From: a virus
Taxonomy: Duplodnaviria; Heunggongvirae; Uroviricota; Caudoviricetes
IMG/VR virus record: IMGVR_UViG_2576861133_000001
Length of the DNA stretch: 19,349 bases
Direction: 5' to 3' (one strand)
The notes beneath the pieces are model-generated. The model ran no database searches. It worked only from the letters and a program-made list of their open reading frames with translations, and had not been told where the DNA came from. Position numbers and translations under genes: made by a program. Positions within the stretch are counted from its first letter, which is position 1, and each line of letters starts with the position of its first letter. This document shows, piece by piece, positions 1 through 16,702 of this stretch.

Positions 1-144
1 CCTCACGAGGCGTGTGTGCCTTACCGCCACCTTTTCCCATACAGCCTTCCCCTGAATAAATTAACCGCCACTTGCCATTCCGTACAGAAGTCGGATATCC
101 TTCGCCCGAAAAGCATGAAACACATTTCTGCCATGCTAAAGAGA

Positions 145-174
145 AACCCCGGTATCAGCAGATACCGGGGTTTT
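145..174. terminator. Rho-independent terminator-like hairpin, possibly bidirectional; may end the minus-strand late operon about 210 nt after gene I
   Basis: Perfect 10-bp stem ccccggtatc (147-156) / gataccgggg (161-170) with a 4-nt loop, followed by tttt (171-174) on plus and flanked by an A/T-rich stretch on the other side. Confidence 0.5.
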
Positions 175-245
175 CTTTCATGCCCACCGATAATCCTGTT
201 GGTTAAAACCGGTAATGGCATAAAAATTCTGAATATCTTCACATT

Positions 246-273
246 TTCACAAACTGACTGTGGCGCGTATAAT
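246..273 (+). promoter_or_regulatory. Sigma70-like promoter candidate (TTCACA, 16-bp spacer, TATAAT)
   Basis: -35-like ttcaca at 246-251 and consensus -10 tataat at 268-273 with a 16-bp spacer; no ORF with a ribosome-binding site follows before the 339-379 terminator. Confidence 0.35.
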
Positions 274-338
274 TTCTCTGCGTTAATTTTTTTGTCGTGA
301 TATAAGAATAATTCCTTACACTTAATCTTCGTAACTCT

Positions 339-379
339 CCCGCAGTTCCTGTCCGCGATCACTGCGGGATTTTTTTATT
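339..379 (+). terminator. Plus-strand rho-independent terminator
   Basis: Stem cccgcagt (339-346) / actgcggg (361-368) followed by atttttttatt; on the minus strand the stem is not followed by a U-run, so it is plus-specific. Confidence 0.5.
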
Positions 380-383
380 CTTT

Positions 384-1316
384 TTACCCCTGCCGCCCGA
401 TAACCACGACCTTTCCGCCCCCGCCTTCATCACGGGTACTGATGTCCTGGGATATACGGCGGGAGCCAACCAGCATTTCCCCGTAAGGCACCGGCATCGG
501 GTTACCCTGGGCAATCATGTTATCCAGGGAGGAAAAGTACGTGTTCTGTTTACCGTTATCCGTGCTTTTGTACTCCGGTGTTTTTGCCTTCGGGGCCAGC
601 ATCTGGGCCACACCGCCCAGTATCATGCTGGCCCCCAGTGAAAACAGCATCGTGGTGGCAGAAAAACCGCCGGCACTCAGGGCTGTACCCCATAACGCCA
701 TCGAGGCACCGGCAGTGAAGAAAGAGCCCACGATGGCTGCCGCCCCCAGCACAATCTGCAGTCCACCCTTTCCGGCCCCGGCCAGTCGCGGCACAATATG
801 GATGACCGTTCCCTCACCCAGCTGTTCGTGAAGACGGGCGTACACCGCCTCCGGTGCCGTGTCATAACCGGCAATACGTATCTGGTACCAGCCTTCGTTC
901 ATCTGACGGCGAAAGCCCGGCACCTGTAACGACAGCGCCCGGATGGCTTCCGCTGCCGTACCGGCAGTGAAGAAAGAGCCCACGATGGCTGCCGCCCCCA
1001 GCACAATCTGCAGTCCACCCTTTCCGGCCCCGGCCAGTCGCGGCACAATATGGATGACCGTTCCCTCACCCAGCTGTTCGTGAAGACGGGCGTACACCGC
1101 CTCCGGTGCCGTGTCATAACCGGCAATACGTATCTGGTACCAGCCTTCGTTCATCTGACGGCGAAAGCCCGGCACCTGTAACGACAGCGCCCGGATGGCT
1201 TCCGCTGCCGTGTTCACATACAGGCTGAGGCGGCGGCCAAATCGTTGTAAATCCCCGTGAAGGCAGATGCGTGCCAGTGGCGGTGACGCCAGACAGAATG
1301 CGTTCGTCGTTGCCAT
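384..1316 (-). CDS. I: Lambda-type tail tip assembly protein I, carrying an internal 84-aa tandem duplication
   Basis: 310-aa ORF with ATG at 1316; recalled lambda gpI-like segments (HGDLQRFGRRLSLYVNTAAEAIRALSLQ, KQNTYFSSLDNM); sits last in the M-L-K-I order; the first 34 codons overlap the K 3' end. Confidence 0.8.
   Translation of the reverse strand: MATTNAFCLASPPLARICLHGDLQRFGRRLSLYVNTAAEAIRALSLQVPGFRRQMNEGWYQIRIAGYDTAPEAVYARLHEQLGEGTVIHIVPRLAGAGKGGLQIVLGAAAIVGSFFTAGTAAEAIRALSLQVPGFRRQMNEGWYQIRIAGYDTAPEAVYARLHEQLGEGTVIHIVPRLAGAGKGGLQIVLGAAAIVGSFFTAGASMALWGTALSAGGFSATTMLFSLGASMILGGVAQMLAPKAKTPEYKSTDNGKQNTYFSSLDNMIAQGNPMPVPYGEMLVGSRRISQDISTRDEGGGGKVVVIGRQG
708..1211. repeat. Perfect direct tandem duplication, 2 x 252 bp, inside gene I
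   Basis: 708-959 is identical to 960-1211 base for base by manual comparison; the protein segment TAAEAIRALSLQ...GSFFTAG occurs twice. Confidence 0.95.
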
Positions 1317-1957
1317 TTTTCGGAATACCTCTCCCGTTTACTCAGTTGTTCAGGCAGATGGTGAAGCAGCTCACCGTTGCCGCAGTAAATGGCGGCATGG
1401 TTCGGTACCGAAGCACCAAAGCAGCACAGCAGAATATCGCCCGCCTGTGCAGAGGACAGGGGCACCCGGTAAAAGCCGGTGACCGCCATATTGTCCAGGT
1501 AAAGGTTCTGACCGTTGCGCCACCAGTCATCCTCGCGATGAAAATCCGGCATTTCAGTCCCCGCCAGATGATAAGCATCCCGGAACAGCGTGTAACAGTC
1601 CGTCACCCCGTGCTCAAAGCGCCGTCCTGTCAGATGTGGCACACAGCGGAATTTGTGAATGTCACCCCGGCAGACCAGCCACCAGGGCAGTGCGCTTTTT
1701 ATCTGCAGCCGCCGGTCAGCCTCGCTCAGCCAGGGCAGCCCACCGGGATGACTGTGGACCAGTGCCACAATCTCCCCCTGCATCTCTGCCCGCAGCCAGT
1801 CTTCCGGTGCGATACGAAAATACGCCTCCGGCTCTGCAGAAATATTCACACAAGGGATATACCACTCCCCCTCCGGCGTGCTTATCACGAAGCCGCACGA
1901 CTCCGCAGGCGCACACCGCCGGGCATGCGCCAGAATCGCTGATTCAGTCTGTGTCAT
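1214..1957 (-). CDS. K: Lambda-type tail assembly protein K (JAMM/MPN-like HSHPGG motif plus NlpC/P60-like Cys/His)
   Basis: Start set at the internal ATG 1957 (MTQTESAILAHARRC...), matching the recalled lambda K N-terminus; the ORF-track upstream extension overlaps L and is rejected; HSHPGG and DCYTL...PNHAAIY motifs are present. Confidence 0.8.
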   Translation of the reverse strand: MTQTESAILAHARRCAPAESCGFVISTPEGEWYIPCVNISAEPEAYFRIAPEDWLRAEMQGEIVALVHSHPGGLPWLSEADRRLQIKSALPWWLVCRGDIHKFRCVPHLTGRRFEHGVTDCYTLFRDAYHLAGTEMPDFHREDDWWRNGQNLYLDNMAVTGFYRVPLSSAQAGDILLCCFGASVPNHAAIYCGNGELLHHLPEQLSKRERYSEKWQRRTHSVWRHRHWHASAFTGIYNDLAAASACM

Positions 1958-1967
1958 AAACCGGGAT

Positions 1968-2918
1968 TTACTGCGAAAGTTTATTAATGGAAAGGAAACC
2001 GCCAAAATTGCCGACATTCCTGCGCAGTTCACACCCGCGCATGCACTTGCTGCATCTGTCCTTACGGATATCCGTGGTGGGGTTGTCGAACTCATCCGCC
2101 ACCGCAGGACCGTTATACCCGCATTCATCTCCCCGGTAATCCCACATACAGGTGTTCGCCAGCATGATGCGACCGGGAAACAGCGCCCCGTCCGTCTCGG
2201 TCGGTGTAGCCAGCACAAACGAGGCCGTCATGGCTGTCAGCTGCGACATCTGCTCCACCACCCAGCGGTCACTCAGCTCCTGCTCCGGGTCCGCCTCCGG
2301 ATTGCCCGCAACGAAATTCACCGCATCCAGAAAACGGGCATACACCCGGCGGCGGACCACCGTGGCCCCCACCAGACTCTGCAGGTCTTCCGCCATCCCG
2401 GTGACCAGACCGAACAGATTGGACACCGTCAGCGACGGTCTGGCACTGCTGCCCAGTGTAGCCAGCACAAACGAGGCCGTCATGGCTGTCAGCTGCGACA
2501 TCTGCTCCACCACCCAGCGGTCACTCAGCTCCTGCTCCGGGTCCGCCTCCGGATTGCCCGCAACGAAATTCACCGCATCCAGAAAACGGGCATACACCCG
2601 GCGGCGGACCACCGTGGCCCCCACCAGACTCTGCAGGTCTTCCGCCATCCCGGTGACCAGACCGAACAGATTGGACACCGTCAGCGACGGTCTGGCACTG
2701 CTGCCCTTCCCGCTCATCTCAAAACCGCTGCCGTCAATCGGGTATGCCTGATATTGCCGCCCCTGCCAGGTGACCGGCTCCCCTTTTTCATTCAGCTCAT
2801 TACAGAAAAAATACCGCTCACCGCCCTGTACCGTCAGGTCGATTTCCCAGAGTACCACCCGCGGTGACTGCTCTGACTTAACCGACTCGTTCAGACTTTC
2901 TTCGCGAATATCCTGCAT
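1968..2918 (-). CDS. L: Lambda-type minor tail protein L, carrying an internal 84-aa tandem duplication
   Basis: 316-aa ORF; N-terminus MQDIREESLNE and C-terminus NVGNFGGFLSINKLSQ match recalled lambda gpL; its ATG (2916-2918) overlaps the M stop as ATGA. Confidence 0.85.
   Translation of the reverse strand: MQDIREESLNESVKSEQSPRVVLWEIDLTVQGGERYFFCNELNEKGEPVTWQGRQYQAYPIDGSGFEMSGKGSSARPSLTVSNLFGLVTGMAEDLQSLVGATVVRRRVYARFLDAVNFVAGNPEADPEQELSDRWVVEQMSQLTAMTASFVLATLGSSARPSLTVSNLFGLVTGMAEDLQSLVGATVVRRRVYARFLDAVNFVAGNPEADPEQELSDRWVVEQMSQLTAMTASFVLATPTETDGALFPGRIMLANTCMWDYRGDECGYNGPAVADEFDNPTTDIRKDRCSKCMRGCELRRNVGNFGGFLSINKLSQ
2204..2707. repeat. Direct tandem duplication with a 252-bp period inside gene L
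   Basis: 2204-2454 is identical to 2456-2706 (251/251), with a single junction base at 2455; the protein segment GSSARPSLTVSNL...ASFVLAT occurs twice. Confidence 0.95.
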
Positions 2919-3259
2919 CAGTTCACCACCTGCTCAATCGTACAACTGAAATCACTGTGCCTGGCGTTATCTGTGACGCTCCACTCCCGGCACACCACCC
3001 TCACCGTCAGGTTATGTTTCGGCGGTCGCCACAAAAAGGCACGGTAACCACCATGCCACGATAAAAATTCATCCAGCCAGCGCCGGGTTGGTTCATCCGT
3101 CACCCGGAACACCGCCTGAAACGTCTTCAGTCTGGCATTAAGTCCCGTCGGTCGGCGCTGTTCATAACCGTCACCAAACCGAACCCTCACCACCGACGGT
3201 TTCTCACTCACCTGCATCCCTTCACGCGGGACCAGATGCAGCGTTTTTATCTCAGCCAC
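2918..3259 (-). CDS. M: Lambda-type minor tail protein M
   Basis: 113 aa with a GTG start at 3259; PSVVRVRFGDGY and C-terminal EQVVN match recalled lambda gpM; the start overlaps the tape-measure stop. Confidence 0.8.
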   Translation of the reverse strand: MAEIKTLHLVPREGMQVSEKPSVVRVRFGDGYEQRRPTGLNARLKTFQAVFRVTDEPTRRWLDEFLSWHGGYRAFLWRPPKHNLTVRVVCREWSVTDNARHSDFSCTIEQVVN

Positions 3260-6200
3260 TCAGCATTCCTCCGTCACGTCGCATGGACAGCATCACCGCC
3301 TGCACCCGCTGGTCAATCAGCTGCACAAGACTGCCTGCCGCCTCCGCCCCTATCTGTCCGTTAGCCCCGTCATTCTGAATGGCGATGTGGTAGACCGGGG
3401 AATACACCAGACCGGCACTGCCGTTCATACTGCCCACCGCGCGTACGCCCAGCGAGCCATCCGCCGCCCGGGTCAGGGGCATAATGGCTTCAGGTCCGGC
3501 TTCCCCCATCAGCCCGGCCCCTTTTGCAAACGCAAAGTACGTGGGCGTGTCCACAATGCTGTTGCTGTACGCACTCAGGTTTGCCGAGGTATACACGCCG
3601 CCTTTTGCATTGGCCACCGCACCGCCCAGCCAGTCACCAATGCTGCCAATAAATCCTCCCGCACCGGACATACCGTTTGCCGCCGTCTTAATTCCGTTGA
3701 CAATCGCAGCATTCATAAGAACTTTTGAGATTTCCTGCAGTACGGATGAGGCCCAGTTGCGCCATTCCACTTTGTTTCCGTTCAGCATCTCCGTGATGTT
3801 ATTCACCATCCCTGAGATACCCTCCGTCGCAAGCTGTGCTGCCTGTGAGGCGTAATCGGATGCATTGTCCACCCAGTTACTGAGCCCCTCCTGCAAGCCT
3901 TTCTGCCAGTCCGCACGCTGCGCATCCGATTCGGCATAAAAGGCTGCCTGGTCCTTAAGGCGTTCGCTCAGATACTGCGCGTTCTGTGCCCGTGCCTGTC
4001 TGTAAAAATCCTCACTGATATCCCCGGTCTGATACTGAGACTGAAGGTCCGCATCCTTCTGGCGGAAGCTGTCACGGATCTGCTGCAACTCCCGCATGCG
4101 TTCCCTGGCTCGTTCTCCCTGCCCGTATCCCAGCAGTTCGGCTTCATTTGATGCACGCGCAGCCACATTATCATTCTTCAGGGTCTCTTCCCGGGATCGC
4201 AACTGTTCCCGGATTTTTTGCTGGTCAATCAGGGCCGCGTTACGCAGCAGTTCCTGCTTCTGCATCTCCGTCAGGGTTTTCAGTTCGCCCTGCGCAGTCT
4301 GGTACTTCAGCTTCGCCAGCTCTGTATTCTGACCCGCCAGTGCCAGTTGCTCTTTCTGCTGCTTCAGTAGCCGGGAAAAACTGTCTTCCGCTTTTTCCGT
4401 CTCTGATTTTCCACCCCGGGATTTAGGTTTGTTCGCCTCGTTATTACGCCAGGCTTCCAGAGCATTACTGATATAACGCTGTCTCGCCTCCTGATACGAA
4501 TCCCCCACAAAACCAAGGTCATCCGCCGCATACCCCAGCCGGGCACGCTCTTTTTCCTCCCCCTTCAGTCGGGACAGGGCCAGCTCACGTTCTGTTTTTG
4601 TCAGGGCGCTCTGCTGTTTATCATCCAGGGTGGCCTGCGGCAGCCGTAACGGTACATTCACCAGTCCCTGACGCTGCTGAAGCAGTTCATTCCCCAGCCC
4701 CAGCAGACGGTTGAATTCCGTATGCTGACCGTTCATAACCAGCATGGACTGGTACACCTTATTCTGCTCTGCCGCCTGCTGACGAATTAACGCCACACGA
4801 CGGTCTTCCAGCCCGGCAAGCACATCCTGAATGGACTGCGCTTTTTCCTGCATCTGTGCCAGACGGGACTGCTCAACGGCAAGCTGCTCTGTTGCCTGAG
4901 AAAGCCCTTCCGTCACGGTCTTCACCGATGTCAGATGGTTTATCATGAATCCGTCACCGGTTGTCCAGCCAGGGTTAGCCAGAACATACTGATATCCAGC
5001 GATTTTTTCCTGCAGGGATTTCACCCGGCTGGCCTGTTCATCAATCAGCCGGTTCTGCTCTGCCAGCGCCGCCCGTGTTCGTCCTTCATTATCTGAGGCT
5101 TCAGGCAAAGACATTGACGGCGTTTTATGCGCGATTTCATCTATCGTCAGTGCATACTGGCGCGCTGACTCCCTGGCCTGCTCCTGATTCTGGTACAGCG
5201 TATACCATGCTGCTGCCCCCAGCATCACCAGTCCGGGTACGCCACCAACCAGTCCCAACGCACCAGTCATCAGACGTGAGCCCACCGCCGTTGTACTGTT
5301 CAGCTCATTCTGGGCTGCGGTTCTGGCAGCAATATTTCTGTTCAGGCGTTCCTGTGTGGCCGCCAGACGGGCTTCTGCAGCAATCTGCATCTCCGTCCCG
5401 CGGGCTGCCGCCACAGCCTGCTGTGCACGGTACACGGCTGCCCTTGCCCGCGCCGTGGCAATCTGCGTCCCCCTGAGCTGTGCTTCCGCCAGTGCCACTT
5501 CATTACGTGCTGCCGTCACAAGTCCTGCCGTGGCAGACACCGCTCCGGAGGCCATATTGCCAAAGTACCGGGCAACCCCGACGGCAACCAGCGCCCCCGC
5601 GGCTGTTGCCACATTATCAATATTACCGGCAACACCGTTCAGCACGCCGGAGAGCGTTTTCGTCGCTCCGCTGGCTTCATTCGCGCCACCCACCCAGGCC
5701 ATAAAGGCGTTTTCCACCTTTGTGATCCCGTCAGAGACCGTTTCCGGCATGGCGGCATATTCATCACGCAATACCCCCAGCTGGCTGATTAACGCAGGAA
5801 CGACTTTATCCGCCGTCAGTTTGCCGTCGTCCGCCATCGCCTTAAGGTCTTTACGGGCCACGCCCATACCCGCAGCCAGTGCACGTACGATCCGGTCTCC
5901 GCTTTCATTGACCGAATTAAATTCCTCACCGCGTAACACACCCTGTGCCAGCGCCTGGCTGAACTGGGTGATCACCGAGCCCGCCTCTGCCGTACTGGCA
6001 CCGGAGATTTTCAGCCCCGTGGAAATGGCCTCCGTCACCTTCAGCACATCATCAGCACTGTAACCATATTCACGCATTGAGGCTGCCGAGCGGGCAAACA
6101 GGGCCGCATTATCTGAAAATGCCGTGCCCGTCCGCTGGCTGATATCCATCAGCACTTTCTGTGATGACGAAAATTCATCGGATGACTGCGACGCCTGTTT

Positions 6201-6494
6201 CAGTCGGGCATTCACGGAACTCCATTCATCGGCCAGAGAAATCAGGTGTCCGGTGGCAAAGGCACCTGCAAATGCCCCCGCCGTTCCGGCAGCTGAAGCG
6301 CGGATTTCCGTCAACTGGCTGTTCAGCTCAGCCAGGGCGCGTCGCTGCACCCGGGCGACTGCGGCAGCCTGACGCCCGCCATTCTGCAGGGTCCGGTAAT
6401 ATTCACTGCCCATGCGGGAAGCCCGCTGGATCTCCGACTGGAATGACTGCGAATTTGCCGAAATTTTGATAATCAGTTCACGTAACGTCGCCAT
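3252..6494 (-). CDS. Tail tape measure protein (lambda H analogue)
   Basis: 1080-aa ORF between the GT chaperone and M; Ala/Gln-rich coiled-coil-like sequence with Gly-rich hydrophobic segments; ATG at 6494 preceded by ggagaaagg. Confidence 0.85.
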   Translation of the reverse strand: MATLRELIIKISANSQSFQSEIQRASRMGSEYYRTLQNGGRQAAAVARVQRRALAELNSQLTEIRASAAGTAGAFAGAFATGHLISLADEWSSVNARLKQASQSSDEFSSSQKVLMDISQRTGTAFSDNAALFARSAASMREYGYSADDVLKVTEAISTGLKISGASTAEAGSVITQFSQALAQGVLRGEEFNSVNESGDRIVRALAAGMGVARKDLKAMADDGKLTADKVVPALISQLGVLRDEYAAMPETVSDGITKVENAFMAWVGGANEASGATKTLSGVLNGVAGNIDNVATAAGALVAVGVARYFGNMASGAVSATAGLVTAARNEVALAEAQLRGTQIATARARAAVYRAQQAVAAARGTEMQIAAEARLAATQERLNRNIAARTAAQNELNSTTAVGSRLMTGALGLVGGVPGLVMLGAAAWYTLYQNQEQARESARQYALTIDEIAHKTPSMSLPEASDNEGRTRAALAEQNRLIDEQASRVKSLQEKIAGYQYVLANPGWTTGDGFMINHLTSVKTVTEGLSQATEQLAVEQSRLAQMQEKAQSIQDVLAGLEDRRVALIRQQAAEQNKVYQSMLVMNGQHTEFNRLLGLGNELLQQRQGLVNVPLRLPQATLDDKQQSALTKTERELALSRLKGEEKERARLGYAADDLGFVGDSYQEARQRYISNALEAWRNNEANKPKSRGGKSETEKAEDSFSRLLKQQKEQLALAGQNTELAKLKYQTAQGELKTLTEMQKQELLRNAALIDQQKIREQLRSREETLKNDNVAARASNEAELLGYGQGERARERMRELQQIRDSFRQKDADLQSQYQTGDISEDFYRQARAQNAQYLSERLKDQAAFYAESDAQRADWQKGLQEGLSNWVDNASDYASQAAQLATEGISGMVNNITEMLNGNKVEWRNWASSVLQEISKVLMNAAIVNGIKTAANGMSGAGGFIGSIGDWLGGAVANAKGGVYTSANLSAYSNSIVDTPTYFAFAKGAGLMGEAGPEAIMPLTRAADGSLGVRAVGSMNGSAGLVYSPVYHIAIQNDGANGQIGAEAAGSLVQLIDQRVQAVMLSMRRDGGMLSG

Positions 6495-6510
6495 TCACCT
6501 TTCTCCGGGC

Positions 6511-6533
6511 GTAAAAAAACCGCCTCAGCGGTT
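6511..6533 (-). terminator. Intra-operon hairpin with U-tract (attenuator-like) between T and the tape-measure gene
   Basis: Minus-strand stem aaccgc/gcggtt (6518-6523 / 6528-6533), 4-nt loop, followed on the minus strand by a run of six T; shares the motif AAAAAAACCGCC-N4-CGGTTC with the element at 14233-14258. Confidence 0.35.
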
Positions 6534-6541
6534 CTCATCAT

Positions 6542-6850
6542 TCATGACTGTGCTGCGAAGCTCAGCGCGTCTTCCAGCGCCGCAAACGGATCCACCTCCG
6601 GCTTATCCTCATCCTCGCCCCAGCAGAGCATGGCGTCCTTCAGTGCAACATTCATCCCCTGTGCCCCAAAAACCGCTTTCACGATCTGTGCATTACGGAT
6701 ATCCCCGCGCTCATCACCCAGCGGGGATACCCTGTCGAACTCCATCCACATCATCGCCTCGCTCACACTCAGGCTGTGCCGCAGTTCGGATAAGGTGCGC
6801 CCCAGACGGAGCGCAAGTCGCATCAGAAAGCGAATTTCCGGGCGGGCTAC
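6542..6850 (-). CDS. T-frame segment of the tail assembly chaperone GT fusion, reached by a -1 frameshift from G
   Basis: The ORF in the -1 frame relative to G is open from the slippery site to the stop at 6542; it encodes LRLGRTLSELR..., which resembles the T domain of lambda-type GT. Confidence 0.6.
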   Translation of the reverse strand, partial: VARPEIRFLMRLALRLGRTLSELRHSLSVSEAMMWMEFDRVSPLGDERGDIRNAQIVKAVFGAQGMNVALKDAMLCWGEDEDKPEVDPFAALEDALSFAAQS

Positions 6851-7221
6851 TTTTTTCTGGCCGACTCTGCATCAGCGATCAGTTCCAGTGCCTGACGCAG
6901 CAACCGGGCATGTACCGGACCATAGACGGCCAGCACCTGCTCACGGTCGTCCGGAGCGAACACCCGCTGCAGATCCGTATCACACAGGACATCGCAGAAC
7001 AGCGTCACATCCGCTTCTAGGTTACGGCGGGTTTTCGCCACCACCGACAGGGTATCGTCATCCTCTCCATCACCATTGAGCACTTCCTGCCACAGATACC
7101 AGGCCTCTGCCGAAGGCTCCCGCAGCACCACGCTGACATTACCCCATTCCGGCACCTTCACCGTTTTATGACGAAACCCTGACAGTCTGGCCAGCGCCAG
7201 CGTTTTCAGATCCTTTTTCAT
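6847..7221 (-). CDS. Tail assembly chaperone G
   Basis: Sits between the major tail and tape-measure genes; ends ...ESARKK immediately after the slippery heptamer; start chosen at ATG 7221 (MKKDLKT), though ATG 7269 is an alternative that would overlap the major tail gene. Confidence 0.65.
   Translation of the reverse strand: MKKDLKTLALARLSGFRHKTVKVPEWGNVSVVLREPSAEAWYLWQEVLNGDGEDDDTLSVVAKTRRNLEADVTLFCDVLCDTDLQRVFAPDDREQVLAVYGPVHARLLRQALELIADAESARKK
6850..6856 (-). promoter_or_regulatory. Programmed -1 ribosomal frameshift slippery heptamer A AAA AAG (G to GT)
   Basis: Minus-strand reading gcc aga aaa aag tag; heptamer A_AAA_AAG lies in the G zero frame two codons before the G stop; the -1 frame continues open into T. 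Confidence 0.6.
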
Positions 7222-7235
7222 GATGACCCATCCCC

Positions 7236-7952
7236 TTATCCGGCGGCTGCGCTCACTGTCACGGTGCATTCAACAGACGTCACACTCTGTGCTTTCTCTG
7301 CCGAATCGGTCACCACGCAGGTATATTTCCCCGCATCAGCGGACTGCGCACCTGGCTTACTGAAGGTGTCTGTCGTCTGCCCGTCAACCGGCTGACCATC
7401 CTTCTTCCAGGCGTATTTATACGGCGGCGTTCCCCCGTTGGCACTGACTGACATTGTCAGCAGCGCACCTGTATTCACGGTAAGTGTTTTATCCAGATTT
7501 TTCACAAACGCCAGCGGTACCACAAAGGACACCGGTTTGCCTTTCATACGCAGTGAAAACGTTGCTGCCACCACGCCGTTGGTACCGGATGACCAGGTGT
7601 GCTGACGCACTTCCGCCAGGAACTTAAAGCCCTTACCGGACGGAAACAGCACCTTAAACGCATACAACGCGTCATTGTCATAGGCATCACGCAGGGCGTT
7701 CTGGGCCTGATTCAGATAAAAATTACCCGACATGGAAATCTCAGACGACGCCCCCAGACCGTTGATGTTCTCCTGCTCGGTGGAGCAGAGCGTGGTCACA
7801 TCAATATCCTGTTTCTGACCAGCGGTGAACTGGACTTCCTTGATGGTGCAGTCCAGGCGCAGATATTCCGCCTTATCCATAGTTTCAGCAGTCGCCGGGG
7901 CAGATGAAATCATCACCTGCGTCAGCTGTGAGCGTTCATACAAAGCAGACAT
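7236..7952 (-). CDS. Major tail protein with a C-terminal Ig-like domain
   Basis: 238 aa; strong AGGAGG ribosome-binding site upstream of ATG 7952; its position before G/GT; C-terminal segment KYAWKKDGQPV...GKYTCVVTD resembles a bacterial Ig-like fold. Confidence 0.8.
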   Translation of the reverse strand: MSALYERSQLTQVMISSAPATAETMDKAEYLRLDCTIKEVQFTAGQKQDIDVTTLCSTEQENINGLGASSEISMSGNFYLNQAQNALRDAYDNDALYAFKVLFPSGKGFKFLAEVRQHTWSSGTNGVVAATFSLRMKGKPVSFVVPLAFVKNLDKTLTVNTGALLTMSVSANGGTPPYKYAWKKDGQPVDGQTTDTFSKPGAQSADAGKYTCVVTDSAEKAQSVTSVECTVTVSAAAG

Positions 7953-7964
7953 TCTGCCTCCTGA

Positions 7965-7989
7965 TAATAAAAAACCCGCACGCGGCGGG
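7965..7989 (-). terminator. Hairpin with U-tract immediately upstream of the major tail gene
   Basis: Stem cccgc (7975-7979) / gcggg (7985-7989) with the A-run 7965-7974 on plus, which reads as a U-run after the stem on the minus strand. Confidence 0.3.
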
Positions 7990-8018
7990 GTATGGGTTTT
8001 GTAGAAAAAAAGAAAAAG

Positions 8019-8363
8019 TCACACCGTGACCTGAAACTCCAGGGTTGCACGGTAACAGCGGTTTTCCGGAATATAGTCCTGCATTTCACTGACGGATCCC
8101 GGGGCCAGCAGCATTATGGCTTCACGGGCGTCCTGACGTATCTGACGCGCCTGCGTCACAGTCCCGGCATAAACGTCTATCTGCACCGACACTGAGGACT
8201 CCGCCTGCCCGCCCATCACGTCCGCAGACACCGATGAAATCAGGCTGAAAACCACCCACGGAAGCGCCACCGACGGCCTGCCATCCAGCAGGGGGACCAC
8301 ATACGGGTACACCTGCCCGCCGGCAAGATGCGCCAGATGAGGATACAAATCCGCCTCCGTCAT
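8019..8363 (-). CDS. Tail completion / tail terminator-like protein (DUF3168-like position)
   Basis: 114-aa ORF; its ATG overlaps the upstream stop as ATGA; assignment is by position between the gp10-like gene and the major tail gene. Confidence 0.55.
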   Translation of the reverse strand: MTEADLYPHLAHLAGGQVYPYVVPLLDGRPSVALPWVVFSLISSVSADVMGGQAESSVSVQIDVYAGTVTQARQIRQDAREAIMLLAPGSVSEMQDYIPENRCYRATLEFQVTV

Positions 8364-8806
8364 CGTCTCAGTACCTCATCAATGGCCCGGTTCATCCGCG
8401 CAATCGCCACCTGAGCTGCCTGTTCACTGCGCACATCAAACGCCGGGCGCACAAACGGGTGCGGTGGCATATTCACGGTCCCCATTTCCACAAACCGCCA
8501 GTAGAAAGCATTGCGCGGGTTATCCGCCTTCATGGTGTTATCGCTGTTACCGGTGTCCGGATTAACACCACGGATATGGACACCGGATTCCATCCCGCCA
8601 TCGCGGGAGCGCCGGGAAAGGACCACCACATTGCGGCGCAGTTTTCCCCTGCGTACCGGTGCCCGTGACACCACTTCTTCTTTCAGCACATTCGCACCCG
8701 CACGGGTTGCCTCACGCAGCACCCGGTTATTTTCCGCACCACTCAGAAGCTGCAAATCGCGGCTGATGTCCTCCAGCCCCGAAAAATCCAGCAGGGTTTC
8801 GATCAT
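8360..8806 (-). CDS. HK97 gp10-family head-tail joining protein
   Basis: 148 aa; translationally coupled at both ends by ATGA overlaps; sequence style and position are typical of the HK97 gp10 family (recollection). Confidence 0.6.
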   Translation of the reverse strand: MIETLLDFSGLEDISRDLQLLSGAENNRVLREATRAGANVLKEEVVSRAPVRRGKLRRNVVVLSRRSRDGGMESGVHIRGVNPDTGNSDNTMKADNPRNAFYWRFVEMGTVNMPPHPFVRPAFDVRSEQAAQVAIARMNRAIDEVLRR

Positions 8807-9153
8807 TTTTCCCCTCCCAGCCGACAGAGAATTTCCAGACGCCCGCCGGTCGCATCCGGCACGGGCAGCCCGACAACGTTCAGGATCCGGTCACGCCATG
8901 GACCACTCAGCACATGAAGTCGTGACGCTGCCGTGATTTCCCGACCGGACTGACCGCGCACCCAGATGCGGATTTCCGCCTGCGCCATTTCCGCACCGGA
9001 CTGCATCCGCTCCCGGCTGCTCCTGCCTCGGATATCCGCATGAATTTTCCCGCATGACACCCATTCTTCCGTCATTTCTCCGGCAGCGTTACGGGTTAAC
9101 ACCGGGTTCAGAACACTTATCATCTGTGTCAGACGACCTGCAGATATTGCCAT
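8803..9153 (-). CDS. Head closure / head-tail adaptor protein
   Basis: 116-aa ORF that is second after the portal in the head-tail joining cluster; stop overlaps the next start. Confidence 0.55.
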   Translation of the reverse strand: MAISAGRLTQMISVLNPVLTRNAAGEMTEEWVSCGKIHADIRGRSSRERMQSGAEMAQAEIRIWVRGQSGREITAASRLHVLSGPWRDRILNVVGLPVPDATGGRLEILCRLGGEK

Positions 9154-9162
9154 TCCCCCTCC

Positions 9163-9489
9163 TCATAACACCGTCGGACAACGCAAATCGTAAATCAGCA
9201 CGGAAACAGAAAACGGCAGCTCCCCCTGAAGCAGTTCTTCCCGCTCCGCAAGATCCGGATTCCGGTACAGCATCCCGGTCAGTCGCATGGCAGCCCCCTT
9301 CATCCGGGTTAATGCCTCGCCCGGGATCAGTTCACCGTCCTCACGGATCACTTTATCCCGGCTGCCCTGAATGTAGGCCAGCAGCACGGCGGTAGCCTGA
9401 CGAACCTTGTCCATCAGCATGTCATCATCCGCGTCATGGTCGACACGCAGATGTGCCTTGATCTCTTCCAGTGTCAGTAATGCCGTCAT
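9163..9489 (-). CDS. gp6-like head-tail connector protein
   Basis: 108 aa; N-terminal motif LTLEEIKAHLRVDHDADDD is typical of gp6-type head-tail connectors; its ATG overlaps the portal stop. Confidence 0.7.
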   Translation of the reverse strand: MTALLTLEEIKAHLRVDHDADDDMLMDKVRQATAVLLAYIQGSRDKVIREDGELIPGEALTRMKGAAMRLTGMLYRNPDLAEREELLQGELPFSVSVLIYDLRCPTVL

Positions 9490-12071
9490 TTTCCGCCTCC
9501 TGCATCCCGCCCACGTTTTGCAGCCAGGGTCCAGGCTGATGAATGAGCTTCTCCGGGTTTATCTTCGGTCATACTGTTGCAGTGCCACAGCGAGCCCCCC
9601 CACGTCACCGTATCGCCGGGGTGGTAGGTTTCACCGGCTCTGAACACACCGCGGTAGAGCATCACCGGCAGGGAAAATGTTTTTTCCGTACGCTGGCCAC
9701 TGCTCTGCCGGACCACCACAGAGAACAACCGCTCACCCGTCATGCTGACGTCAATATCCGCCACCCCGTCAACCAGGCATTCCCATCCCCGCATCCCGTG
9801 CGTTTTTTCATACGCCCGCCAGAGTCCGCCCTGGTGTGTGGCATACGTGCCCCGGGGAAAGGATTTTTGATCGTCAATGGCGGGGAGTATTTCCAGAGCC
9901 GTGGCATCACGCCCGTCCTGCGGAGCCGGCAGGGCACTCACCGCATCCAGAACCGCCTTCTGCAGAACATCCGGATCGTAGTCACGACCATCACGCGGAA
10001 CATGAATATGGCTTACCGCCTCCTTCACCATCTGTTCAAGCATCGGACGCACATCATCCGGGGTGAGACTTTTACCGTCTGCCGGCTGCGGAATATTTGC
10101 GACCGCATCATTCACCGCCTTCTGCAGAACATCGGGATCATAGTCACGACCGTCGCGCGGAACAGGGATATGGCTTACAGCCTCCTTCACCATCTGTTCA
10201 AGCATCGGACGCACATCATCCGGGGTGAGACTTTTACCGTCCGCCGGCTGCGGAATATTTGCGACCGCATCATTCACCGCCTTCTGCAGTACTTCCGGAT
10301 CGTAGTCACGACCATCACGCGGAACAGGGATATGGCTTACAGCCTCCTTCACCATCTGTTCAAGCATCGGACGCACATCATCCGGGGTGAGACTTTTACC
10401 GTCCGCCGGCTGCGGAATATTTGCGACCGCATCATTCACCGCCTGCTGCAGTACATCCGGATCATAATCACGACCATCACGCGGTACCGGAATGGCCCCC
10501 ACAGCGTCATCCACCATCGCCTGCAGAACCGGACGCACCTCATCCACCGTCACATGCTTCTGTAATACCGCCGACAGGGAAGTCAGTTTCTCTTCAAACG
10601 CTTGTGCCTGCGAGGCCATCTTCCCCTCAAATGTGCGCTGTAAATCCGCCAGCACTGTGGAGAATTCTTCTCCCAGTGCACGAATAATGGACAGTTCCCG
10701 TTCCGTCATTTTCTCAGTATCCCCCCTGAACATCGCTTTCACCGCATCATGCTCTGTTTCACTGATTGCCTTATTACCGTCAGATGCGCCGTCAGGCAGC
10801 TGTGATGAAACTGTTTTCCCGGCAGACGCGAACGGATCCTCACGGGCATCACGACGGGACAGCGCCTCCAGACTGTAGTTCTGCTGCTGAAGATACAGTG
10901 CATCACCGCCGGCCAGGGGCGGCAGGTTCTCCCGTTTACGGGCCTCATTGGGCGTGAGAAGCGTATTTTTCACCGCATCCCCCAGCGTTTTCATGCGCCG
11001 CTCACTGTCCATTCTCAGCAGCGTGGTGACATCAAATTCTGTACTCTCGTTTTCCCCCGTTTCCAGCGCCTCATCCAGTAACAGTTCAATGGACTCAATC
11101 AGCGTCTGCAGGCACTGGGAATAATACTGCTGCTCCAGCGCCTCCACGTTGTCACTGGAAGGCGGTTGTCCCACGCCAATCTTGTAGGCCGGGACACGGA
11201 ACACCGAACAGACAATTTCAGCGGTCATCTTCAGTTGTTCCACCGTCTGCGCATCCACAGGTGAAAACGTCGTGGGGTTGTATTTTGCCCCGTTGCTCAG
11301 AATGGCCGTTTTCCCCGCATTTTCGCCTGTATACCCGCTGTCCCAGTTGCTCTTCAGTTTTTTCGCATTTTCTTCCGTAATACTGCCGGGGATCTCAATC
11401 ACCCCGGACGGCCTGCCGCCATTTCTGAAAAAAGACGTCGAATTTTCCTGAATATGATGCCCCTGCGTGGCCGCCAGCCCGGCGGCATACACCGGCGGCA
11501 ATCCTATAAGCGGATGAAAAAAACAGTTAAACCGGTCGTGGATCACTTCCCGGGCAGGCACCGTCACCGCCTCCGTGATCCCGCAGTTCCGGTCCGGCGT
11601 GATGCGGTAGAACACCTCGCCGTCATCCGCCACCAGAGGTTCAACCCGGCTCCAGTCCAGAATACGCAGTTCTTTGATCTGCCCCCGGGCATTACGGATT
11701 TTCAGCACCACCGTATTGCCATGACGCAGTTTGGCGTTCAGCCACAGTTCAAAAAACTGGATGCGGTTCTGCTGGGCGTTGGGACGACGACAGAGGCGGG
11801 CAATATCCCCCCGGCGCGTTTCCCTGCGTATCCCATGCGCATCCGTCTGCATAAGACGCAGCCGCATTTTGGCGATATCCTGGGATATCAGCGAAATACA
11901 TGCAAACACCGCATGAAAGGAGAGGACGGCTTCAGGATCGGCTTTCACGCCCTGCTGCCAGGCGCCGGAAAAGGGCTCAGCCACCGCCTGAAACAGGCTG
12001 GTCCAGCCCGCCTCTCTTACGTCACGTCCTGATTTCTGGTTTTTTCGGGTTCGCCGTAAAAGGTTCCACAT
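9486..12071 (-). CDS. HK97-family portal protein with a roughly 350-aa C-terminal extension (tandem 54-aa repeats plus a terminal aromatic-rich domain)
   Basis: The N-terminal roughly 450 aa align by eye to HK97 portal (FRNGGRPSG...KTAILSNGAKY...FRVPAYKIG against recalled FGNGSRPSG...KTAVL...FGVPPHLVG); the C-terminal part is an uninterrupted extension of the same ORF. Confidence 0.8.
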   Translation of the reverse strand: MWNLLRRTRKNQKSGRDVREAGWTSLFQAVAEPFSGAWQQGVKADPEAVLSFHAVFACISLISQDIAKMRLRLMQTDAHGIRRETRRGDIARLCRRPNAQQNRIQFFELWLNAKLRHGNTVVLKIRNARGQIKELRILDWSRVEPLVADDGEVFYRITPDRNCGITEAVTVPAREVIHDRFNCFFHPLIGLPPVYAAGLAATQGHHIQENSTSFFRNGGRPSGVIEIPGSITEENAKKLKSNWDSGYTGENAGKTAILSNGAKYNPTTFSPVDAQTVEQLKMTAEIVCSVFRVPAYKIGVGQPPSSDNVEALEQQYYSQCLQTLIESIELLLDEALETGENESTEFDVTTLLRMDSERRMKTLGDAVKNTLLTPNEARKRENLPPLAGGDALYLQQQNYSLEALSRRDAREDPFASAGKTVSSQLPDGASDGNKAISETEHDAVKAMFRGDTEKMTERELSIIRALGEEFSTVLADLQRTFEGKMASQAQAFEEKLTSLSAVLQKHVTVDEVRPVLQAMVDDAVGAIPVPRDGRDYDPDVLQQAVNDAVANIPQPADGKSLTPDDVRPMLEQMVKEAVSHIPVPRDGRDYDPEVLQKAVNDAVANIPQPADGKSLTPDDVRPMLEQMVKEAVSHIPVPRDGRDYDPDVLQKAVNDAVANIPQPADGKSLTPDDVRPMLEQMVKEAVSHIHVPRDGRDYDPDVLQKAVLDAVSALPAPQDGRDATALEILPAIDDQKSFPRGTYATHQGGLWRAYEKTHGMRGWECLVDGVADIDVSMTGERLFSVVVRQSSGQRTEKTFSLPVMLYRGVFRAGETYHPGDTVTWGGSLWHCNSMTEDKPGEAHSSAWTLAAKRGRDAGGGK
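9869..10546. repeat. About 4.2 tandem copies of a 162-bp (54-aa) near-identical coding repeat inside the portal gene
   Basis: Period-162 registration at 9961, 10123, 10285 and 10447; the three central copies differ by only a few substitutions; protein unit DDVRPMLEQMVKEAVSHIPVPRDGRDYDPDVLQKAVNDAVANIPQPADGKSLTP. Confidence 0.85.
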
Positions 12072-12238
12072 TCGCCATGCTCCGCATCACGTTTCTTTTT
12101 CTGACCTGCCGGACGTCGCACCGTGATGTACTCCGCCTTTCCCAGGCGAACCAGCACCTCCGCACACGGCTGTGCCACATCACGGATATCCCCGGCCCGG
12201 GCATCATGCGTGCCCTGCAGATATCGGATCTTTGCCAT
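12017..12238 (-). CDS. Hypothetical 73-aa basic protein in the capsid-portal intergenic gap (doubtful)
   Basis: ATG-initiated ORF in the ORF track; weak ribosome-binding site; overlaps the first 18 portal codons out of frame. Confidence 0.2.
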   Translation of the reverse strand: MAKIRYLQGTHDARAGDIRDVAQPCAEVLVRLGKAEYITVRRPAGQKKKRDAEHGECGTFYGEPEKTRNQDVT

Positions 12239-12282
12239 AACCTGTTACGGGAGGCGCACGCCTCCCGTCCTCCTTATCAGAC

Positions 12283-14220
12283 TCAGCCGCCGGACGCACT
12301 GCCGTAGTTCACTCCGGTGATCACCGCCACCGCCGCAGTACGGCGACGACGCCAGTTGATCCAGCGCTCCGCACGGATGGCCACGCTGCCTGTCTGGAAC
12401 ATGGAAACCAGCTCCACCGGGGACGGCGTGGTACTGTCGCCGGTCGGCTCAGACTGCATTTCCAGTGATGCCTCGCGGGACATATCCACTGCCACGCCGC
12501 CGTCATCCGCCAGATAAATATCCGGGGCATTCACCAGCACCAGCTGGTCACCCACGTACTGGGAGACAATCACCGGCAGCCCCTGGAAGGAGCCACCCAG
12601 CAGGGTCATGTCCGGGTATTCCTTCTGACCCAGCGCATTTTTACGCATGGACAGTGCCAGGGCATTGGTGCTGGACATCAGCCAGACCGCACCGGTGGGC
12701 TGCAGGTTTGCTGCCACAAACTGTCCAAACGCAGCCTCTGCATCCGCATCCGGGTTACCGGTTGATGCCGTGCCCTTCACATCATGGGTGATGGACGCCG
12801 GGGAGACATCTGCCACTGCGGCTTTTTTCGGGTCCACAAAGTCTGTATCCAGACGCGCCACCACCGCTTCCGCCAGCGCATTACGGACCAGTGCATCAGC
12901 AGCCGGACTGGAAAAACGGATCAATTCTTCCGTCAGTACCGCAATGGCCGACACCTTCGCATGACTGAAGGTGATGGATTCAAAATCAAACTTCGTCAGG
13001 GGTTTTGCCTTACCCTCACCCACCCAGCCGGCAGCACCGCCGGACACCTGGGCGTGCACACGGATATTGAATGGCACCTGACGAAGTGCAGGGATCCCGC
13101 CCTGACCAAATCGCCCGATAATGGTCTGCGGACGCAGGTAATCAATAAAGTCCTGTGCGTATTCCTGATATTCAGACAGGCTGCCTGCCCACTGCGGATC
13201 CGTGGTGGTCCCCGCGCCCACTGCCGATTTCAGGACATGATGCAGACGACTGTCATCCGGATACTGACGACGGGCCACTTCCAGGGCTTCAGATCGGACG
13301 CCTTTAGCCGCAGCCAGCGATTTGGCAAAGCGGGCGAAGCCAATCCCCTTATCCAGTTTCTGCTCCACACGGATCACCGGCGCAGAAGCCACCGCGGCCA
13401 CATTCCCGTTACCGGCCTGTTTCACCGGCTGCGCCGTGGCGGCCTTACCGGCTTCCAGTTCACGCAGGCGCTTCAGGTGCGCATCCACCTGACGGATTTC
13501 CGCTGCGGTGTTGTCGTAATGCTCTTCCTCCTCCACATCCAGCGTGCGCCCTTCCTCTGCGGCTTTGGTCATGACCTCCTCAAGGGAGGCTGCCAGCGCT
13601 GCACGCTTGTTTTCAAAACTTTTAATCTGTTCGCCAATATTCATTATGGTCTTTTCCTTATGAAAAACGGTTGTTGACTGTGCCGCAGCGCCGGCAGAAG
13701 ATGCGATTTTCACCACCGGTTTCCGGTTGCCGGACGCGGCAGAAAACGGGCGGTCGTAAGATTTAATGGTCCGGATGGTGCATTCCGCATTCGCGGGCAC
13801 GGTGACGGCAGACACCTCCATCAGTTCCCAGCGCAGAAAATGCAGTCCGCCTCCGTCCAGAAAGGTGTATTCATGGGGACGGAAGCCCACGGACAGCCCC
13901 CTGACCAGCCCGGTCTTAATGGCCGCCCAGACCTCATCCAGCCGGGCAGCCAGTTGCGACGGCATATCCGGTACGGGCTTCACCAGTGTTGCCGTGATTT
14001 CCAGCCCTTCGCTGACCCGGCGCACCGTACACTGCCCCACCGGGCGGGAATGGTCATGCTGCCAGAGAAACGGGATCGCACTGCCAAACTCCGCGCCCTC
14101 CGGCTCCAGGATGTCACCATCCCGATCCGGAGAAGGCGTTGACGCAATCCCGGTGATCACCCGTTCATCCTCACTGAAGGATTTCACCGTCAGCAGGGAA
14201 CAGGCCCGTTTAAGAGTCAC
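12283..14220 (-). CDS. Fused HK97-family prohead serine protease (S78-like) and major capsid protein
   Basis: 645 aa; N-terminal protease-like motifs (GIASTP...LWQHD...GLSVGF...EVSAVTVPAN), a central coiled-coil delta-like segment, and a C-terminal HK97-fold capsid-like region; GTG start at 14220 preceded by AGGAGG. Confidence 0.8.
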   Translation of the reverse strand: MTLKRACSLLTVKSFSEDERVITGIASTPSPDRDGDILEPEGAEFGSAIPFLWQHDHSRPVGQCTVRRVSEGLEITATLVKPVPDMPSQLAARLDEVWAAIKTGLVRGLSVGFRPHEYTFLDGGGLHFLRWELMEVSAVTVPANAECTIRTIKSYDRPFSAASGNRKPVVKIASSAGAAAQSTTVFHKEKTIMNIGEQIKSFENKRAALAASLEEVMTKAAEEGRTLDVEEEEHYDNTAAEIRQVDAHLKRLRELEAGKAATAQPVKQAGNGNVAAVASAPVIRVEQKLDKGIGFARFAKSLAAAKGVRSEALEVARRQYPDDSRLHHVLKSAVGAGTTTDPQWAGSLSEYQEYAQDFIDYLRPQTIIGRFGQGGIPALRQVPFNIRVHAQVSGGAAGWVGEGKAKPLTKFDFESITFSHAKVSAIAVLTEELIRFSSPAADALVRNALAEAVVARLDTDFVDPKKAAVADVSPASITHDVKGTASTGNPDADAEAAFGQFVAANLQPTGAVWLMSSTNALALSMRKNALGQKEYPDMTLLGGSFQGLPVIVSQYVGDQLVLVNAPDIYLADDGGVAVDMSREASLEMQSEPTGDSTTPSPVELVSMFQTGSVAIRAERWINWRRRRTAAVAVITGVNYGSASGG

Positions 14221-14232
14221 ATCAGCCTCCTG

Positions 14233-14258
14233 AAAATAAAAAAACCGCCGGAGCGGTT
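14233..14258 (-). terminator. Intra-operon hairpin with U-tract between the terminase large subunit gene and the capsid gene
   Basis: Stem aaccgc (14243-14248) / gcggtt (14253-14258), loop cgga, followed on the minus strand by tttttatttt; same sequence family as the hairpin at 6511-6533. Confidence 0.4.
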
Positions 14259-14283
14259 CGTGATGGTTACAGTGTGAACAGGG

Positions 14284-15945
14284 TTATATGAAAAAAACCG
14301 CATATTCTTTCTTTTTCGGTTCCGGGTTAAGGGACATCAGGGAGACCGCATTGAACAGCGCCATCAGCGGGTCAATTTTTCCCCGTCCACTGGCCTGTTT
14401 GGTGATAAGAATGGCGTTACCTTTAGGCTCCACCCGGGCATTGCCGACACACCAGGCCATCAGGGGCTGGTCACCATGCACCAGCACCCCTTCAGCCAGT
14501 TTGCGCTCGGTGGTTTTAATGGCCCCGCCCAGTTTCCAGCCCTGGCTTATCCCCACCACAATTCCGTCGGGGATCCCGGCTTCCGCCAGTGAATCCAGAA
14601 TCTGCCCCACCCCTGACGGGTCAATACCGATATGGTCCAGTAACTCAGCCTCATGAATGCGACGCACATATTCCGCCACTTCCGCCGTGTCATCCCCGAC
14701 ACGCCGGACAATGGTCATATCTCCACAGGCAACAAGATCCTGAAACCGGGACGCCTCGCTCTTCCGTCGGACCACCGCGGTTTCATGCGCCCAGGCATGG
14801 CCCCAGCCCAGCCATTCGCGGGTCTCCCGGTCACGCCCAATCACATACATCCCCAGCAGATCATCCAGCCCTCCGCCGTCAATCCCCACCGTCACCACAT
14901 CAGCACGACGCAGGATATCGTCCAGGCTGATACAACGGCCCTGCTCTTCCCAGAAATCAGCCCCCGCCCAGCGGTCAGAGCGCAGGGCAAGACCAATTTC
15001 CACATTGGCGTGTTTTGACATGAACCCCCGGAATGTCTCTTCACCGGCTTCCCGGGCTTTACGGTACTCCCGGTACAGAAAGGCCTCATCCACTGAATAG
15101 CCGAGATTCGGATTGACCATGGCGAGGTTTTCCATCAGCAGGTTAGTCCCGCTTTCCACCATTTCAGGAGGGTGTTCAAATATCACCGGCAGAAAGTGCG
15201 GATCATGAATTTTGCCGTCGCGCACATCCCGGGCGTACTGCAGTTTCTGTCTGAACACCCCGGCGGGCGGTTCATTCGACTGGGTGGTCGTATACACCAC
15301 AAACCCTTCCGGGCGGGAGGCAAGGCCGCCTATGGCTTCACGTAACATGTCCTCCGCCTTGCACTGCTTGCCAAACAGCCACAACTCATCAATCAGCGTA
15401 CCCACGGACTTGATACCGGACACCGTATTCGGATCGGCTGCCACCACCTTCAGGGTGGTGTCCGTCACTCGGTGGGTGATGGTCCGGATATGGGTCTGTA
15501 CCTGGCAGAGGTCATCCAGATCATCGTCACGTCGTACCATATCCCGGGCAGGGTTGAAGGCGTTGGCCGCCACCTCCACAGTCGGGGCCAGAATCGTGTA
15601 ACCCGCCGCCTGCCGCCAGTTCAGTAACAGTGCAGTCATCATGATCCCCGCGGCCAGCGTGGACTTCGAGTTTTTCTTGGGGATAAGGATAAAAACTTCC
15701 TTGATATGGCGTACACCGGTCTGCGCATCGTAGGAGCCAAACAGGGCCGCCACCAGGTCAAACACCCACGGTGCACAGGACTCCCCGAACGTAGGGCTAC
15801 CAGGTGCATCCACAATCCGCAGTTGTTTAAAAATCGCCAGGGCATGTGCGGCCTCGTCCGGATAAATCGGATCCGGAATAATCGACAGCCCCTTTTTCAG
15901 GCGCTCTGCCCAGTCCGGGCAGGCTGTGCTCCATACAGGTATCAT
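14284..15945 (-). CDS. Terminase large subunit
   Basis: 553 aa; Walker-A-like LIPKKNSKST; C-terminal nuclease-like region; ATG overlaps the small-subunit stop as ATGA. Confidence 0.85.
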   Translation of the reverse strand: MIPVWSTACPDWAERLKKGLSIIPDPIYPDEAAHALAIFKQLRIVDAPGSPTFGESCAPWVFDLVAALFGSYDAQTGVRHIKEVFILIPKKNSKSTLAAGIMMTALLLNWRQAAGYTILAPTVEVAANAFNPARDMVRRDDDLDDLCQVQTHIRTITHRVTDTTLKVVAADPNTVSGIKSVGTLIDELWLFGKQCKAEDMLREAIGGLASRPEGFVVYTTTQSNEPPAGVFRQKLQYARDVRDGKIHDPHFLPVIFEHPPEMVESGTNLLMENLAMVNPNLGYSVDEAFLYREYRKAREAGEETFRGFMSKHANVEIGLALRSDRWAGADFWEEQGRCISLDDILRRADVVTVGIDGGGLDDLLGMYVIGRDRETREWLGWGHAWAHETAVVRRKSEASRFQDLVACGDMTIVRRVGDDTAEVAEYVRRIHEAELLDHIGIDPSGVGQILDSLAEAGIPDGIVVGISQGWKLGGAIKTTERKLAEGVLVHGDQPLMAWCVGNARVEPKGNAILITKQASGRGKIDPLMALFNAVSLMSLNPEPKKKEYAVFFI

Positions 15946-16505: not shown

Positions 16506-16579
16506 AGCCTCCTCCCGGGTCCAGAACGCACTCAGCCGGGTATGGTTCAGCCCATTTTTCCCGGCGTCTCATGCCGCAA

Positions 16580-16702
16580 ATGTTAACTGCTGCCTGGTTA
16601 ACATTTGCTGAAAAAGCCTGTTAACATTTTTTCCGCACAACAAACTGAATAATAAAGATAAAAACCGCAAAAATGCCCGGGCAGCCAGTTAACATGTTAA
16701 CT
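16580..16702. promoter_or_regulatory. Array of five GTTAAC(AT) palindromic motifs; candidate cos / terminase small-subunit binding region
   Basis: GTTAAC at 16582-16587, 16597-16602, 16620-16625, 16688-16693 and 16696-16701, four of them with the extended 8-mer GTTAACAT/ATGTTAAC, inside the 290-bp gap between the HNH and terminase small-subunit genes. Confidence 0.55.

Follow-up and report, generated by a model that had tools for sequence, protein, structure and literature searches.

Contigs in draft assemblies built from de Bruijn graphs carry a characteristic positional signature, wherein the variants that distinguish one copy of a repeat from another lie exactly one k-mer length from the contig ends (PMC5368935, BMC Genomics 2017). 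The locus described here, a pair of perfect tandem duplications in the tail genes of a lambdoid prophage, has the same signature. Within the window, by which we mean the entire 19,349-nt stretch of DNA that was analyzed, each contig extends into a repeat by a fixed overlap length and stops there, and this length is 251 nt at all six contig ends. The locus departs from the published signature in two respects. Overlapping contigs have been concatenated here without trimming, which creates the appearance of tandem duplication, and an overlap of 251 nt is unusually long.

A second group of related cases consists of the false duplications that draft assemblies acquire where scaffolds are joined or gaps are closed, with similar cases in BDID01000049.1 and CXAQ01000042.1. 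As in our locus, these duplications are adjacent perfect copies in multi-copy prophage regions and are missing from finished genomes. However, the periods vary among the joins of BDID01000049.1 (177, 164, 128 and 47), whereas they are equal in the window, most likely because both periods consist of the raw graph overlap plus one filler base. A third possible comparison is with genuine duplications that arise by slippage. These also are head-to-tail perfect copies within a gene that can preserve the reading frame, but our locus differs from them by its lack of microhomology, a non-templated base at one junction, the equal lengths of the two duplications, and their placement relative to the assembly graph.

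Judging from sequence comparisons, both duplications are almost certainly the untrimmed, fixed 251-nt overlaps of three contigs from a short-read de Bruijn graph that were joined end to end. The duplications are not a real feature of the prophage and represent no biological novelty.

Results and Discussion

Genes of the tail-tip region

Pfam matches and the RefSeq annotation of the matching genome identify the region as the tail-tip block of a lambdoid prophage. Its genes are as follows.

40 downward, minus strand: start of J (Pfam matches and RefSeq annotation of the matching genome)
384-1316, minus strand: I, lambda tail tip assembly protein I (Pfam Lambda_tail_I; 310 aa in the window)
1214-1957, minus strand: K, JAB/MPN and NlpC/P60 tail tip protein (Pfam Prok-JAB and NLPC_P60; RefSeq annotation of the strain 21437 locus)
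1968-2918, minus strand: L, lambda minor tail protein L (Pfam Phage_tail_L; 316 aa in the window)
2918-3259, minus strand: M (Pfam matches and RefSeq annotation of the matching genome)
3252-6494, minus strand: H, tape measure (Pfam matches and RefSeq annotation of the matching genome)

The Pfam family Lambda_tail_I matches the duplicated form of I as two stretches, and the same is true of Phage_tail_L and the duplicated form of L. When the extra copies are left out, the 226-aa I protein aligns end to end with lambda gpI (PDB 8IYK chain I, E = 3e-96), and residues 1-232 of the 232-aa L protein align with lambda gpL (PDB 8IYK chain L, E = 4e-127). The true products are an I protein of 226 aa and an L protein of 232 aa, and the 310-aa and 316-aa forms are not real proteins. 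Gene K, which lies between the two affected genes, is untouched by the artefact.

Structure of the two tandem repeats

The first-pass annotation had described two in-frame duplications with a period of 252 in neighboring tail genes, and both were recovered when Tandem Repeats Finder was applied to the 19,349-nt window. Repeat 1 (708-1211) and repeat 2 (2204-2706) each have a period of 252, 2.0 copies and 100% matches, and both are located inside minus-strand ORFs that stay open. The window, which is the scope of this check, holds no further period-252 arrays, and an independent repeat search agrees. The latter search also refined the description of repeat 2, wherein the pairing covers 251 positions and not 252 (2204-2454 = 2456-2706), and base 2455 (A) differs from both 2203 (G) and 2707 (T). 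Repeat 1 can be given in the same notation, as 709-959 followed by A at 960 and then 961-1211; its appearance as a clean 252-mer is due to native base 708, which likewise is an A. Each repeat is composed of a 251-nt copy, one filler A (960 or 2455) and the same 251-nt copy again.

The units of the two repeats are unrelated to each other, as had been proposed: their local alignment score is 18, compared to 13.5 +/- 2.1 for shuffled sequences. Between the end of the first array and the start of the second there are 992 nt, and with the extra copies taken out the two starts are separated by 1244 nt. Preservation of the reading frame is automatic, because 252 = 3 x 84. Selection for in-frame products, which the first-pass annotation had offered as one explanation, is thus unnecessary, since any insertion of 252 nt keeps the frame.

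One reading of these repeats is that they are genuine tandem duplications in the chromosome of the isolate, which replication slippage or template switching could have produced in two events, or in one complex event, within an already defective prophage. In favor of this reading, both copies are intact and in frame, and J is frameshifted in the strain 21437 copy of this prophage (RefSeq annotation), so perhaps there is no selection against damaged tail genes. However, microhomology amounts to 0 nt at both junctions, a non-templated base is present at one of them, and the two duplications are identical in length, all of which speaks against such events.

Two further candidate mechanisms were tried and rejected. 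The ends of the units contain complementary words of 6 and 5 nt that might suggest a hairpin or quasi-palindrome, but 2.8% and 13% of positions in this sequence have such words by chance alone, and they are not significant. Stitching of fixed-size chunks was also considered. The joins are 1496 nt apart, yet a third repeat is absent at that spacing.

A finished genome with single copies

The best match to the window is the chromosome of E. coli strain 21437 (NZ_CM190145.1), in which the prophage adjoins trpA and an ompW remnant. Without the two 252-nt insertions, the window is 100.000% identical to this chromosome over 18,845 nt. BLAST reports three pieces, each 100.000% identical, that overlap on the NZ_CM190145.1 chromosome, and therefore both segments are present there in single copy. 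The sister-strain comparison suggested in the first-pass annotation consequently yields an otherwise identical prophage that lacks both duplications.

The relationship between the two sequences can be stated exactly. When slices 1-959, 709-2202 and 1952-18845 of NZ_CM190145.1 (de-duplicated coordinates) are joined by single A's, the result equals the window base for base, with lengths of 959 nt + A + 1494 nt + A + 16894 nt. The window is accordingly divided into the following parts.

1-959: contig (unitig) 1, identical (100%) to the strain 21437 locus 17702-18660
709-959 (copy 1) and 961-1211 (copy 2): overlap 251-mer of join 1 (repeat searches; junction analysis)
960: filler A of join 1, which equals native base 708 by chance (exact rebuild as slice + A + slice + A + slice)
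961-2454: contig (unitig) 2, 1494 nt, corresponding to de-duplicated 709-2202 and exact in related prophage copies
2204-2454 (copy 1) and 2456-2706 (copy 2): overlap 251-mer of join 2 (repeat searches; junction analysis)
2455: filler A of join 2, which differs from both flanking bases (2203 G, 2707 T) and from the C allele of the other prophage
2456-19349: contig (unitig) 3, identical (100%) to the strain 21437 locus 19653-36546

From the region of the J start codon, contig 1 extends across the I-J spacer into gene I, of which it carries the 3' two-thirds. Contig 2 carries the 5' part of I, the whole of K and the 3' part of L. Contig 3 is the unique part of the ompW-trp prophage; it begins in L and continues past M, H, the genes of the tail and head, and terminase as far as the lysis region.

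Searches for the duplications in other sequences gave the same outcome as the finished chromosome. Probes of 50 nt centered on each junction had no match in 5,426 complete E. coli genomes, and the junction 30-mers were absent from species-representative genomes, JGI metagenome contigs and IMG/VR contigs. Exact-match junction probes of this type would miss a source that has N rather than A at the joins. No extra copies were found among 50,697 phage records. The duplicated I and L proteins were likewise absent from a 15-billion-protein collection and its contig index, although this result is weak, since the collection predates the strain 21437 assembly and lacks a protein specific to that strain. 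A genuine duplication would thus be missing from every public sequence searched, including a sister sequence that is 100% identical.

Repeat boundaries and prophage variants

The positions of the repeats become intelligible when related prophages are compared (all coordinates in this section are de-duplicated). Strain Ecol_AZ146, a member of ST131, carries two related prophages, A and B, of which B is the type that ST131 usually carries at ompW-trp. Over 1-2202 the window has the same sequence as prophage A, and the two first diverge at 2203. Relative to prophage B, the window has many differences in 252-708 and matches it from 709 onward, apart from positions 1624 and 1938. Variant 708 has the alleles A/C and variant 2203 the alleles T/C; the filler of join 2, an A, corresponds to neither of the latter. 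The duplicated 251-mers, 709-959 and 1952-2202, are exactly the first and the last 251 nt between variants 708 and 2203.

An A-type prophage is also found in strain 21437 itself, at yecD. Three places in the strain 21437 record match the window, and the one further place that was found is this yecD prophage. It shares with the ompW-trp prophage an exact repeat of 4108 nt that ends at 2202, and the first difference is at 2203, directly after the second duplicated 251-mer. The overlap 251-mer of join 2 is thus the final 251 nt of that repeat.

The same distance appears at the free ends of the window, each of which is exactly 251 nt from a variant, as are both joins. Position 1 of the window equals 252 - 251, where 252 is the first difference from the B type. 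On the lysis-gene side, the yecD and ompW-trp prophages differ for the last time at 18594, and the end of the window, 18845, is 18594 + 251, even though the identity of the two strain 21437 prophages runs past the window end to 18963. Overall, the 251-nt distance to the nearest variant holds at all six contig ends. Contig 1, which corresponds to one arm of the bubble that the prophage variants form, begins 251 nt before the first variant relative to the ST131 B-type prophage (252) and stops 251 nt past the last (708). The limits of contig 2 are set by variant 708, relative to the B type, and by variant 2203, relative to the yecD prophage of strain 21437 and that of Ecol_AZ146. Contig 3 begins 251 nt before variant 2203 and stops 251 nt after the last variant relative to the yecD prophage (18594).

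A k-mer comparison for exact tracts of 251 nt or more found just two in common with the yecD prophage, 1-2202 and 18595-18845, and four in common with the B-type prophage, 1-251, 709-1623, 1625-1937 and 1939-3796. Of 18,595 possible 251-mers, 8 lie at the edge of such a repeat, and all four boundary 251-mers of the window are among these 8, an agreement with a chance probability of ~3e-14.

These distances bear on each of the readings in which the duplications are something other than assembly overlaps. Genuine duplications by polymerase slippage or template switching, as the first-pass annotation had entertained, would not be expected to abut positions of prophage variation to the base, as both units do. 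The strongest point against them is that the ends of the window, which mutation cannot set, follow the same 251-nt rule, and we regard this origin as very improbable. A variant of this reading holds that the duplications are real and were formed in vivo, when recombination or template switching between co-resident prophages stalled at borders of heterology and re-copied a constant length of ~251 nt. The agreement at the window ends would then be coincidental, and such an explanation is scarcely credible.

It could also be imagined that the tandem copies were planted in silico, as insertions of fixed length placed arbitrarily in a real sequence. Apart from the insertions, which are equal in size, the window matches a public chromosome at 100% identity, as this reading would predict. 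Nevertheless, arbitrary sites would not abut variants between co-resident prophages, nor would the start and end of the window sit exactly 251 nt from such variants (the same ~3e-14 applies), and deliberate insertion is accordingly very hard to believe.

Proposed origin of the joins

The preferred reading, in which both duplications are untrimmed contig overlaps, can be stated as a sequence of steps. Of its elements, the division into three pieces, the constant overlap of 251 nt, the position of every contig end relative to a variant and the lack of the duplications in an otherwise identical finished genome are demonstrated by the comparisons above. The window would be a scaffold of a short-read draft assembly, in which contigs 1-959, 961-2454 and 2456-19349 were written consecutively. 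A contig from a de Bruijn graph stops where near-identical repeat copies become identical or cease to be so. Each contig includes the first or last shared k-mer, which it has in common with the neighboring contig, and this produces a fixed overlap, here of 251 bases. The joining step would have left these overlaps untrimmed and added one placeholder base, such that the period is 251 + 1 = 252 at each join. The breaks would fall in I and L because the other lambdoid prophages of the host share an identical J-I-K-L region with this one except at 252-708 and from 2203 onward. The filler may originally have been a one-base gap (N) that was later written as A.

Two suggestions in the first-pass annotation are borne out by this arrangement. 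The equal length of the duplications is no coincidence, since both joins consist of a 251-nt overlap and one filler base, and the proposal that assembly or construction left a systematic artefact of fixed length agrees with the exact rebuild from three slices and with the 251-nt distances to variants.

SPAdes, the most common bacterial assembler, has a maximum k of 127, which is below the 251-nt overlap. The overlap would correspond to K = 251 if neighboring edges share K bases, or to k = 252 in the other convention (both conventions are described in PMC5368935), and a k-mer size and a read length would look alike here. It is also possible, though we consider it unlikely, that the artefact arose downstream of the assembler, either because a later pipeline or the submitter concatenated three separate contigs, or through a string-graph or gap-closing tool tied to reads of ~251-252 nt. 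A filler of one base points to joining outside the assembler, and MiSeq reads are 251 nt in length. Moreover, in string-graph assemblies the same positional signature follows the read length (PMC5368935). However, each of the four overlaps and edges measures exactly 251 nt, and a fixed graph overlap fits this better than would read overlaps that depend on placement. The verdict on the duplications is the same for an assembler origin and a downstream origin, as they are absent from the genome in either case.

For contig overlaps to explain join 1, we infer that the source genome holds a copy with B-type alleles at 252-708. No such alleles were found in strain 21437, where both of the prophages read at these positions carry the A-type arm. 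A query with the B arm returned more than 60 tied ST131 records, and strain 21437 was not among them. With a synthetic query composed of the B-type left side, the shared segment and the A-type right side, mosaics of this structure were found at 99.9% identity in other genomes, and strain 21437 was not listed. The source genome may therefore differ from strain 21437, or the finished assembly of strain 21437 may have been homogenized in the repeat. The pairing of contig 1, with its A-type alleles, and contig 3, from the B-type side, is accordingly provisional, and the window could be a chimera of two prophages.

Implications for database records

The significance of these findings is one of quality control. 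The 310-aa gpI and the 316-aa gpL are unfit for protein databases or comparative analyses, and the record needs to be corrected, either by trimming 252 nt at each join or by splitting it into three contigs. The locus also provides a simple diagnostic: where perfect tandem repeats of equal length are found in multi-copy prophage genes, a difference between repeat copies should be looked for directly outside each unit.

Longer gpL proteins in draft assemblies

Public gpL variants with internal repeats exist, and they could be taken as support for genuine duplication. A search with the duplicated L protein returned several longer gpL proteins (284-307 aa), all of which are singletons. We read three of the contigs that encode them as possible natural precedents for internal duplication of gpL, and rejected all three. 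Each is a draft, and two contain other assembly errors, which argues against reading these public 'duplications' as biological. In BDID01000049.1, 6 kb of tail genes contain four perfect two-copy tandem repeats (177, 164, 128 and 47 nt). A contig from Shigella sonnei has the gene order M-L-M-L-K-I, followed by a second tail block. The third contig is 4 kb in length; its L gene contains a repeat of 156 nt, and the contig ends just after this gene. Draft assemblies are often broken in this region, as is evident from the many 'partial' L and I proteins located at contig ends.

Possible exchange and variation among prophage arms

On the finished chromosome of E. coli strain 21437 (NZ_CM190145.1), the prophages at ompW-trp (locus L001) and yecD (locus L007) have in common an exact tract of 4108 nt that extends from J to L (L001 15796-19903; L007 22811-26917). 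Two related prophage versions, the A-type and B-type of ST131 strain Ecol_AZ146, differ in this arm. The B-type arm is present at an identity of at least 99% in 841 records, whereas the ompW-trp prophage of strain 21437 has the A-type arm instead, and has it, therefore, by virtue of the tract shared with the yecD prophage. Either the two co-resident prophages underwent gene conversion, or assembly or polishing homogenised their sequences. The most divergent patch between A-type and B-type prophages, which includes indels, occupies positions 252-708 and straddles the I-J spacer and the 3′ part of I.

Window 41-383: I-J spacer, 343 nt, separating the I stop from the J start

The G+C content of this spacer is ~0.40-0.41, versus 0.55-0.65 in the tail genes beyond position ~400; in lambda, I and J lie ~60 nt apart. 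The spacer and the variable patch could mark a recombination hotspot or the insertion of a small cassette (moron).

A further gene pair, located in the yecD prophage at its tail-fibre end, looks like a prophage-borne defence cassette.

L007 13935-15834 (NZ_CM190145.1 3018934-3020833): SLATT-domain gene, then reverse-transcriptase-domain gene

Genuine and suspect tandem repeats

One tandem repeat lies within a portal gene of the window.

Window 9940-10545: diverged tandem repeat with a 162-nt (54-aa) unit, in minus-strand ORF 9486-12071

The ORF encodes an 861-aa protein whose portal domain is confined to residues 54-382, and the repeat, with ~3.3-3.7 copies at 87-95% identity, is located in the C-terminal half. 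This repeat is genuine, because the finished strain 21437 genome has it too.

In two public draft contigs that encode longer gpL proteins, L and J contain clustered tandem repeats, each made of two perfect copies; the periods in BDID01000049.1 are 177, 164, 128 and 47.

L002 10446-16205: repeat region in BDID01000049.1 (GCA_003113655.1)
L003 8321-10870: repeat region in CXAQ01000042.1 (GCA_001261215.1)

One of these contigs also has a duplicated M-L block, in which the L copies encode 341 aa and 289 aa. The repeats in both contigs are probably assembly errors, through which singleton variants of gpL and gpJ have found their way into protein databases.

Gene models

The RefSeq version of I (193 aa) begins at an internal GTG (window 1217, minus strand) and looks 33 codons too short. 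An upstream ATG at window 1316 yields a 226-aa product, which aligns to lambda gpI (PDB 8IYK_I) from residue 1. Read from this ATG, I shares a 103-nt overlap with the end of K, and I of lambda likewise overlaps the end of K.

Window 12283-14220, minus strand: 'major capsid protein', 645 aa

In this product a prohead protease domain (Peptidase_S78) at residues 48-152 is fused to an HK97-type capsid domain at residues 386-635, an arrangement known from some HK97-like phages.
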